Below are positions 58,372-58,563 of a DNA stretch of 64,000 bases, in pieces. Source of the stretch: Eledone cirrhosa (taxonomy: Eukaryota); contig OZ024756.1 of NCBI GenBank assembly GCA_964016885.1, positions 36,394,001 through 36,458,000 on the forward strand. The letters run 5' to 3'. The notes under the pieces were generated by a model. That model was not told where the DNA came from. It saw nothing but the letters and a program-made list of their open reading frames with translations, and ran no database searches. Each line of letters starts with the position of its first letter. Position 1 is the first letter of the stretch. The position numbers and the translations under genes are program-made.

Positions 58372-58563
58372 AGGAACCAGTAAGACCCCGACAGCTGAGC
58401 TCAAGCCGTTTCGACGGCTAATTCTGTCCAGAATTAGCCGTCGAAACGGCTTGAGCTCAGCTGTCGGGGTCTTACTGGTTCCTATTACCCACTCTACTAC
58501 CTCAAGTATTGAGTACTTTGGTGCGTTATGGTCCACCTGGTTCCTTACCACATTTCCTTCGTT
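58372..58563 (+). mobile_element. Family A Penelope-like fold-back element
   Basis: Perfect inverted arms of about 54 bp, gtcc loop, about 80-bp tail, (TA)n both sides. Confidence 0.88.

Follow-up and report, generated by a model that had tools for sequence, protein, structure and literature searches.

Palindromic inserts in the genome of Eledone cirrhosa are best explained, at a probability that we put at roughly 0.7, as pairs of cDNAs that ran off the 5′ end of the same RNA and were then joined. The window that we analysed is a stretch of 64,000 nt (contig OZ024756.1, 36,394,001–36,458,000) of a 3.0-Gb genome that is rich in microsatellites. At 58370–58426 and 58429–58485 it holds a perfect inverted repeat with arms of 57 nt and TC at the centre; the unique tail that follows ends at 58562, and the whole insert sits inside (TA)n, as read in the sequence of its left (58332–58372) and right (58563–58663) flanks. 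The tail-less arm (58373–58426, reverse strand) begins at internal site 1 (TTCC|TAT, at +58 relative to the predicted transcription start) and ends 14 nt 5′ of GAAAC. The tailed arm (58426–58562, forward strand) corresponds to +2 to +138 of the predicted transcript, in the 5′ untranslated region of the parent element, and the two arms meet head to head at 58426–58428, with a 1-nt overlap (G) and a TC overhang of the tailed arm, which begins at +2. On the forward strand, comparison with unfolded copies assigns 58426–58442 to the 3′ end of hammerhead loop II and the 3′ strand of stem II (TAGCCG-TC); this copy lacks both the core and the 5′ strand of that stem. Pairing then identifies GAAA, stem III with the palindromic loop TGAGCTCA and GTC (58443–58465), followed by the 3′ strand of stem I (GGGGT, 58466–58470), whose partner in unfolded copies is ACCCC; type-I hammerhead numbering predicts cleavage between 58465 and 58466. 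An 80-nt tail (58483–58562, forward strand) lies between two putative reverse-transcription start sites, and in the parent element TAT follows each of these sites, matching the (TA)n target.

Other inserts of the same family (family A) lie at 20132–20323 (forward strand), where the tail-less arm overhangs and ends at A+1, at 25669–25857 (forward strand) and at 10137–10290 (reverse strand), the last being asymmetric, with a short arm that reaches A+1 with a preceding G and a tailed arm trimmed into stem III. A sequence-only reading of the window had listed nine family A copies, not all of which are clean palindromes: the copy at 34988 is a single arm, that at 47434 is split by a (TA)n run, those at 6855 and 10137 are strongly asymmetric and the junction at 33316 contains templated repeats. 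What it had said of their content is borne out: all nine carry a hammerhead 3′ half (GAAAC-stem III-GTC-GGGG or a variant), the 80 nt upstream are free of CTGANGA in every case, apex sequences vary between copies, and the two arms of one copy share variants, with 51–55 of 55 pairs concordant at five diagnostic columns (one gapped pair dropped) against 22–30 expected if the arms were independent. The junction at 33316–33525, like those at two loci elsewhere (L068 and L074), has several short templated repeats of arm sequence and resembles end joining with repeated priming. More palindromic inserts stand beside (TA)n at 7412–7568, 7630–7972, 18666–18937, 32885–33063 and 46745–47067, some with CTGATGA or GAAAC; they probably belong to further Penelope-like families, built from two arms in the same way. 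Other repeat families contribute compact hammerhead-like motifs of the form CTGANGA-stem-CGAAAC at 47072 and 63631 (forward strand; GACAC replaces GAAAC in the latter) and at 12450 (reverse strand). No hammerhead was found among the best 150 of 425 Rfam matches to the window, which were sub-threshold microRNA-like matches only, to palindromes and microsatellites. The unfolded pLTR sequence of 58426–58551 also occurs, identical, in the runs of two other organisms (X5 and X6) at a depth of 3–8, which may reflect transfer, close kinship or contamination alike.

Genome-wide counts were obtained by exact-match pattern searches and the sampled junctions come mostly from the first part of contig C1, so young copies are over-represented. 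One arm 22-mer has 53,708 exact copies in the genome, and palindromes number 12,010 with a gap of 0–30 nt and 2,782 with a gap of 31–60 nt; reversed-pattern controls for both gap classes gave 0 matches genome-wide, so that these numbers greatly exceed chance. The family A inserts are the truncated end of an autonomous Penelope-like element placed in (TA)n. Their parent occurs as tandem 3,542-bp units with intact ORFs of 717–719 amino acids that combine reverse transcriptase (RT) and GIY-YIG, with RWR at 37, DKTG at 117, YRDDG at 348, CNCPDRSIC at 572, NVIYQC/AYIG at 590–608, CNLC at 670 and CKH at 698; by inspection, the GIY-YIG core contains one cysteine. No Pfam family was assigned to this ORF; its top homologue carries PF01541, which we take to be GIY-YIG. 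Homologues numbered 2,018 among 8,000 scored candidates, most of those listed being about 40% identical. The available text of the paper that defines the Hydra clade names the motifs RWK, DKT, CxCX5C, CxxC and CxH in the absence of CCHH (PMC8557442). The parent ORF has this set, likewise without CCHH and with RWR replacing RWK, and the element shares the clade's single ORF with RT and C-terminal GIY-YIG, insertion into (TA)n and tandem or inverted pLTRs with a tail. Assigned by motifs and not by a tree, the parent would belong to the Hydra clade, and family A is an ordinary new family of a known clade. At one place on contig C1 (91.47–91.50 Mb; L111–L113), at least four near-identical (99.8–100%) 3,542-bp units, four of them with long open frames, end in an inverted arm, which suggests a very young or active locus.

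High copy number and the recurrence of some junctions are what would be expected if the short palindromes were a self-propagating non-autonomous family, MITE-like or retrozyme-like, copied as a unit. Yet the junctions within a subfamily are highly diverse, every subfamily has them, and they pass gradually into long inserts that share the same two ends; we regard such a family as very improbable. In the available text of a recent preprint, non-LTR retrozymes are defined as tandem non-coding repeats, each with a whole hammerhead (10.64898/2026.07.22.740005); the short copies here are instead inverted pairs with half a hammerhead, and the tandem units of the family A parent, unlike retrozyme repeats, are coding.

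The arms end at a sharply preferred position. The family A set comprised 56 palindromes, from 40 stretches of the list with gaps of 0–30 nt, the window and 200 kb of the same contig. Their apex lies on the 3′ side of loop II, mostly 12–18 nt before GAAA, and the longer arm ends 17 or 18 nt before GAAAC (+1/+2) in 29 of the 56 and more than 20 nt before it (over 2 nt upstream of +1) in only two; breakpoints, for which the sequence-only reading had proposed a histogram, are sharply clustered and not uniform. The A of TTAGTCC occupies position 18 and follows the first T of TATTTAAA by 29 nt. Initiators have the consensus YYANWYY, with a TATA-like box at the usual spacing upstream of the start, and the family A end point fits both the consensus and the spacing. 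We also weighed a splice acceptor (TTTTCATTTAG|TCC) at this position but discarded it, since the arms retain AG and no shared upstream exon is seen.

Bases added at the junctions bear on the nature of this end. Reverse transcriptases copy a cap as C. We scored by script 40 of the 50 sites listed among 2,156 matches of the class in which both arms are long. Single-base inserts were G or C in eight of eight cases, the first added cDNA base was C in nine and G in four, and an added C stood on both arms at 3 of the 40 sites (L289, L291 and L303). Seventeen of the 40 seem to run 2–4 nt upstream of +1; an added A looks like template at these positions, so that A/T inserts are counted too low and the start may be heterogeneous. 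We consider it very likely that the end points of families A and B sit at the predicted transcription start. This start, like the cap and the cleavage discussed below, is predicted from DNA. Counting against the start-site reading, the Drosophila Penelope promoter is described in the available text of its report as internal and TATA-less (PMC2377424).

Family B, a second Penelope-like family whose ORF is 52% identical to that of family A, served as an independent test. Its pLTR reads TATAAATA-22 nt-A+1GATTC-CTGATGA, with TATAAATA at −30 and the predicted start at CCA+1GATT (3,645 matches), and one subfamily contains 900 palindromes. In the window it is represented by a palindrome at 15979–16104 that has its apex at the predicted start, 5′ of CTGATGA; the predicted start is here the first base of hammerhead stem I, and CTGATGA is kept on both arms. 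Among 45 of 50 listed palindromes, scored by script, the longer arm ended at +1/+2 in 35, at −1 in 4, short of +2 in 6 and beyond −1 in none. Beyond +1, where the template calls for G in the cDNA, the first base added was C in 13 of the 14 arms that could be counted; single-base inserts, at four A/T to one G/C, speak against the cap reading. In family B the apex precedes the entire core, lying 5′ of an intact CTGATGA, which indicates that its position follows promoter motifs and not ribozyme stems, so that stem II cannot be the general rule.

This bears directly on the mechanism offered by the sequence-only reading, in which nascent cDNA snaps back on hammerhead stem II and the ribozyme structure sets the inversion point. 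Family A apices do cluster between the two strands of the natural stem II (CGGCTA/TAGCCG, with a loop of 37 nt). However, the hairpin just 5′ of GAAA on which that reading had placed the apex is the palindrome itself and not stem II, the 5′ strand of stem II is not reached, and the expected product retaining loop II has 0 copies in the genome, as searched with the TATTTAAA subfamily variant, and 0 among the 50 matches listed in its size class (gap 31–60 nt). Nor can ribozyme structure set the inversion point in family B, with its apex upstream of the whole core. Snap-back on stem II therefore has almost no likelihood left and that mechanism should be replaced; the palindrome and the hammerhead 3′ half are real.

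The unfolded parents that the same reading had predicted do exist, with the expected stem I partner (ACCCC/GGGGT), but their core is TTGAGAA (U3-A8) and not CTGANGA. Copies that extend upstream read ACCCC-TTGAGAA-G-(C/A)T-CGGCTA-[37 nt]-TAGCCG-TC-GAAAC, and 2,634 arms carry UUGAGAA, GAAA and GUC by a genome-wide pattern; the canonical CUGANGA is missing from parent copies. A parent with CTGANGA upstream was sought and rejected, the 30 of its 31 matches read in context being junction inserts or neighbouring DNA. Stems I, II and III of the parent hammerhead have 5 bp, 6 bp plus a G-C across an internal loop, and 6 bp with one G-U, and G10.1-C11.1 is present. From this layout, unfolded copies would contain a complete type-I hammerhead, with UUGAGAA (U3-A8) as its covariant core, for which cleavage is predicted; the minimum-energy structure of a natural copy differs from the hammerhead fold (z −1.49). 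Covariation of U3-A8 in the core has been reported, in the available text, for Schistosoma Penelope-like elements (PLEs; PMC4209133). A subfamily with the core CTGAGAA (C3-A8 mismatch; L032, L049, L050 and L077), accounting for 6 of 58 fetched arms in a biased sample, is possibly unable to cleave yet was amplified. In the short family A copies of the window, the 5′ core and the 5′ strands of stems I and II are absent in nine of nine, so no hammerhead can fold in cis, as the sequence-only reading had held in calling them dead in cis. At six further loci (L006, L019, L022, L005, L012 and L017), family A arms are joined inside the hammerhead region of other repeat families; these joins were chosen by the search pattern and so give no basis for targeting.

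The build of the inserts suggests that both arms are first strands. One tailed and one tail-less arm were found in 54 of 56 family A and 44 of 45 family B inserts. Either arm can be the longer: in family A the tailed arm overhangs in 25 inserts, the tail-less arm in 21 and neither in 8 (P = 0.66 against 1:1), in family B the corresponding numbers are 19, 17 and 8, and ten long tailed/tail-less inserts (L116, L120–L123, L125–L128 and L130) divide 5 to 5, with differences between arms of up to kilobases and a tail-less overhang of 0.3–2.5 kb in five of the ten. The main alternative is that one cDNA begun at the tail end reaches the RNA 5′ end, folds back by microhomology and self-primes a second strand that ends at TTCC|TA, the start site setting the apex. 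Self-priming has been proposed before from palindromic junctions, according to the available text (PMC3846280), and it explains the shared arm variants and the start-site end point equally well. However, self-priming of one cDNA, as the sequence-only reading also had it, expects the tailed arm always to overhang, and the tail-less arm overhangs in 21 of 54 family A and 17 of 44 family B inserts and by 0.3–2.5 kb in five of the ten long ones; this either-arm overhang cannot be explained by fold-back of one tail-primed cDNA. Added C can moreover be present on both arms, and a tail-less cDNA cannot template a tail, which argues against self-priming from a tail-less first strand. We therefore consider fold-back unlikely, and twin first strands on one RNA likely. 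The shared variants could instead stem from later arm-to-arm conversion. Priming on both strands and from two start sites fits in vitro results for the Poseidon element, in which, in the available text, a Penelope-like protein that is a predicted dimer both nicks and extends the two strands, beginning at two internal sites, one on either side of the tail (PMC11167929).

A minor class of inserts folds at the predicted scissile bond. In one subfamily, palindromes counted by their gap from this bond numbered 274 at 0–30 nt, 614 at 31–60 nt and 3,485 at 61–90 nt, and we estimate the minor class at about 4% of the subfamily. A control pattern in which the apex was allowed 3′ of the site gave 214 matches; read by eye, the 100 listed comprise 86 whose longer arm stops at the site, 28 of these being ambiguous because of a CG overlap, 7 in which it falls short and 7 in which it runs past; in 63, both arms stop at the site (again with 28 ambiguous). 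Scored by script, the first 30 of these 100 gave 14 exact, 10 ambiguous by one base, 3 short and 3 long, and single inserts were A or T in seven of seven; their contrast with those of the start-site class has P = 2 × 10−4, from by-eye counts and with added A's that can be masked by the template. Mixed inserts, with one arm at the site and one long, were seen by eye in 3 of the 50 listed among 614; their rarity next to inserts in which both arms stop at the site speaks for a single RNA behind the two arms. The minor class is probably a record of in vivo cleavage at GUC^GGGG.

Pausing of RT at RNA structure could be held to produce both end points, at a weak loop-II hairpin for the main class and at the base of stem III for the minor one. 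Such a hairpin is predicted, the scissile bond is a single nucleotide away from the base of stem III, with 10 of 30 minor-class junctions ambiguous by exactly that nucleotide, and family B is without a clean cleavage class: among 22 family B sites inspected by eye, none combined an insert with two arms ending at the predicted site, a failed replicate of the family A result. Stem II of family B lacks G10.1-C11.1, and this family may not cleave. On the other hand, the end point in family B is that family's own TATA+30 initiator, where the structural surroundings differ and C is added; all seven single-insert junctions of the minor class exclude C17 on both arms, and most copies cross stems II and III, which are stronger. 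Pausing seems to us even less plausible than fold-back.

In the mechanism that we propose, both target nicks would prime cDNA from two internal start sites on one RNA, both cDNAs would run off its 5′ end, and their 3′ ends would be joined by microhomology of 0–2 nt with trimming and short inserts, as the 0–2-nt overlaps and templated inserts at the junctions suggest. The main end point would be the capped transcription start of the pLTR promoter (TATTTAAA at −29, TTA+1GTCC) inside loop II, the added C being the copied cap; transcripts from a start inside loop II would be without the hammerhead 5′ core. RNA that reads through the whole pLTR would give the long two-armed inserts, and read-through RNA that has cleaved itself would give the minor class folded at GUC^GGGG. 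In its most complete form, to which we give slightly less than even odds, the proposal is that a single RNA undergoes symmetric double priming and that the junction needs no second-strand priming of its own. The junctions would then map the 5′ ends of the element's RNA, namely a capped start and the end left when a U3-A8 hammerhead, split by the promoter and able to cleave only in read-through RNA, cuts itself in vivo.

Several elements of this picture were known: inverted pLTRs, one-sided tails, (TA)n targeting, pLTR start sites and pLTR hammerheads are all described in the available texts (PMC8557442; PMC3846280; PMC2377424). The literature, searched mainly in open-access coverage so that older reviews may anticipate parts, yielded no earlier start-site rule with a cap signature, polarity argument from either-arm overhang or genomic pile-up at a hammerhead bond, and none of the three is addressed in the available text of the retrozyme preprint (10.64898/2026.07.22.740005) or of an octopus repeat paper (PMC13282606). 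The origin of head-to-head Penelope-like inserts and the cutting of their hammerheads in vivo are stated as open in the available texts of three studies (PMC8557442; PMC11167929; PMC4209133). Thousands of young junctions give end points at the level of single bases and make both questions directly testable. They yield a predicted start with a cap signature in two families, a symmetric two-cDNA model in agreement with in vitro results and, for a variant core, a predicted position of cleavage; the same reading of junctions is applicable to any genome rich in Penelope-like elements.

In LINE-1 twin priming, both target nicks prime cDNA on one RNA and the inverted junction is joined by microhomology; there the two cDNAs cover different stretches, whereas here they overlap and copy the same stretch to the same end. 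The Hydra clade (Craig et al. 2021, PMC8557442) shares with family A, in its available text, a C-terminal GIY-YIG, RWK (RWR here), DKT, the CxCX5C linker, CxxC and CxH, as well as (TA)n targeting, a pLTR hammerhead, tandem and inverted inserts and a tail at one end, but its unit is under 3 kb and its tail 30–40 nt, against 3.5 kb, 80 nt and a U3-A8 core here; that text calls the formation of inverted structures unresolved and holds no end-point rule for the inverted junction. Inverted pLTRs of Adineta vaga Penelope elements (Arkhipova et al. 2013, PMC3846280) likewise have palindromes at inverted junctions, a tail on one arm and TATA- and initiator-like pLTR motifs; in the available text, they are interpreted by self-priming, possibly on an antisense template, and the junction is not tied to a start site or cap. 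The minimal hammerheads of Schistosoma PLEs (Cervera and De la Peña 2014, PMC4209133) share the core covariation, the palindromic loop 3 and G10.1-C11.1, whereas helix III here has 6 bp and loop II has 37 nt and contains the predicted promoter; the available text of that paper gives no evidence of cleavage in vivo. The Poseidon element PAc, studied in vitro (Frangieh et al. 2024, PMC11167929), resembles family A in its two internal start sites flanking the tail, its AT-rich target, the nicking and extension of both strands and the predicted dimer. In the available text of that study, head-to-head junctions are left unexplained and the second-strand steps open, and no RNA reads end at the hammerhead site, whereas here genomic junctions pile up at that position.
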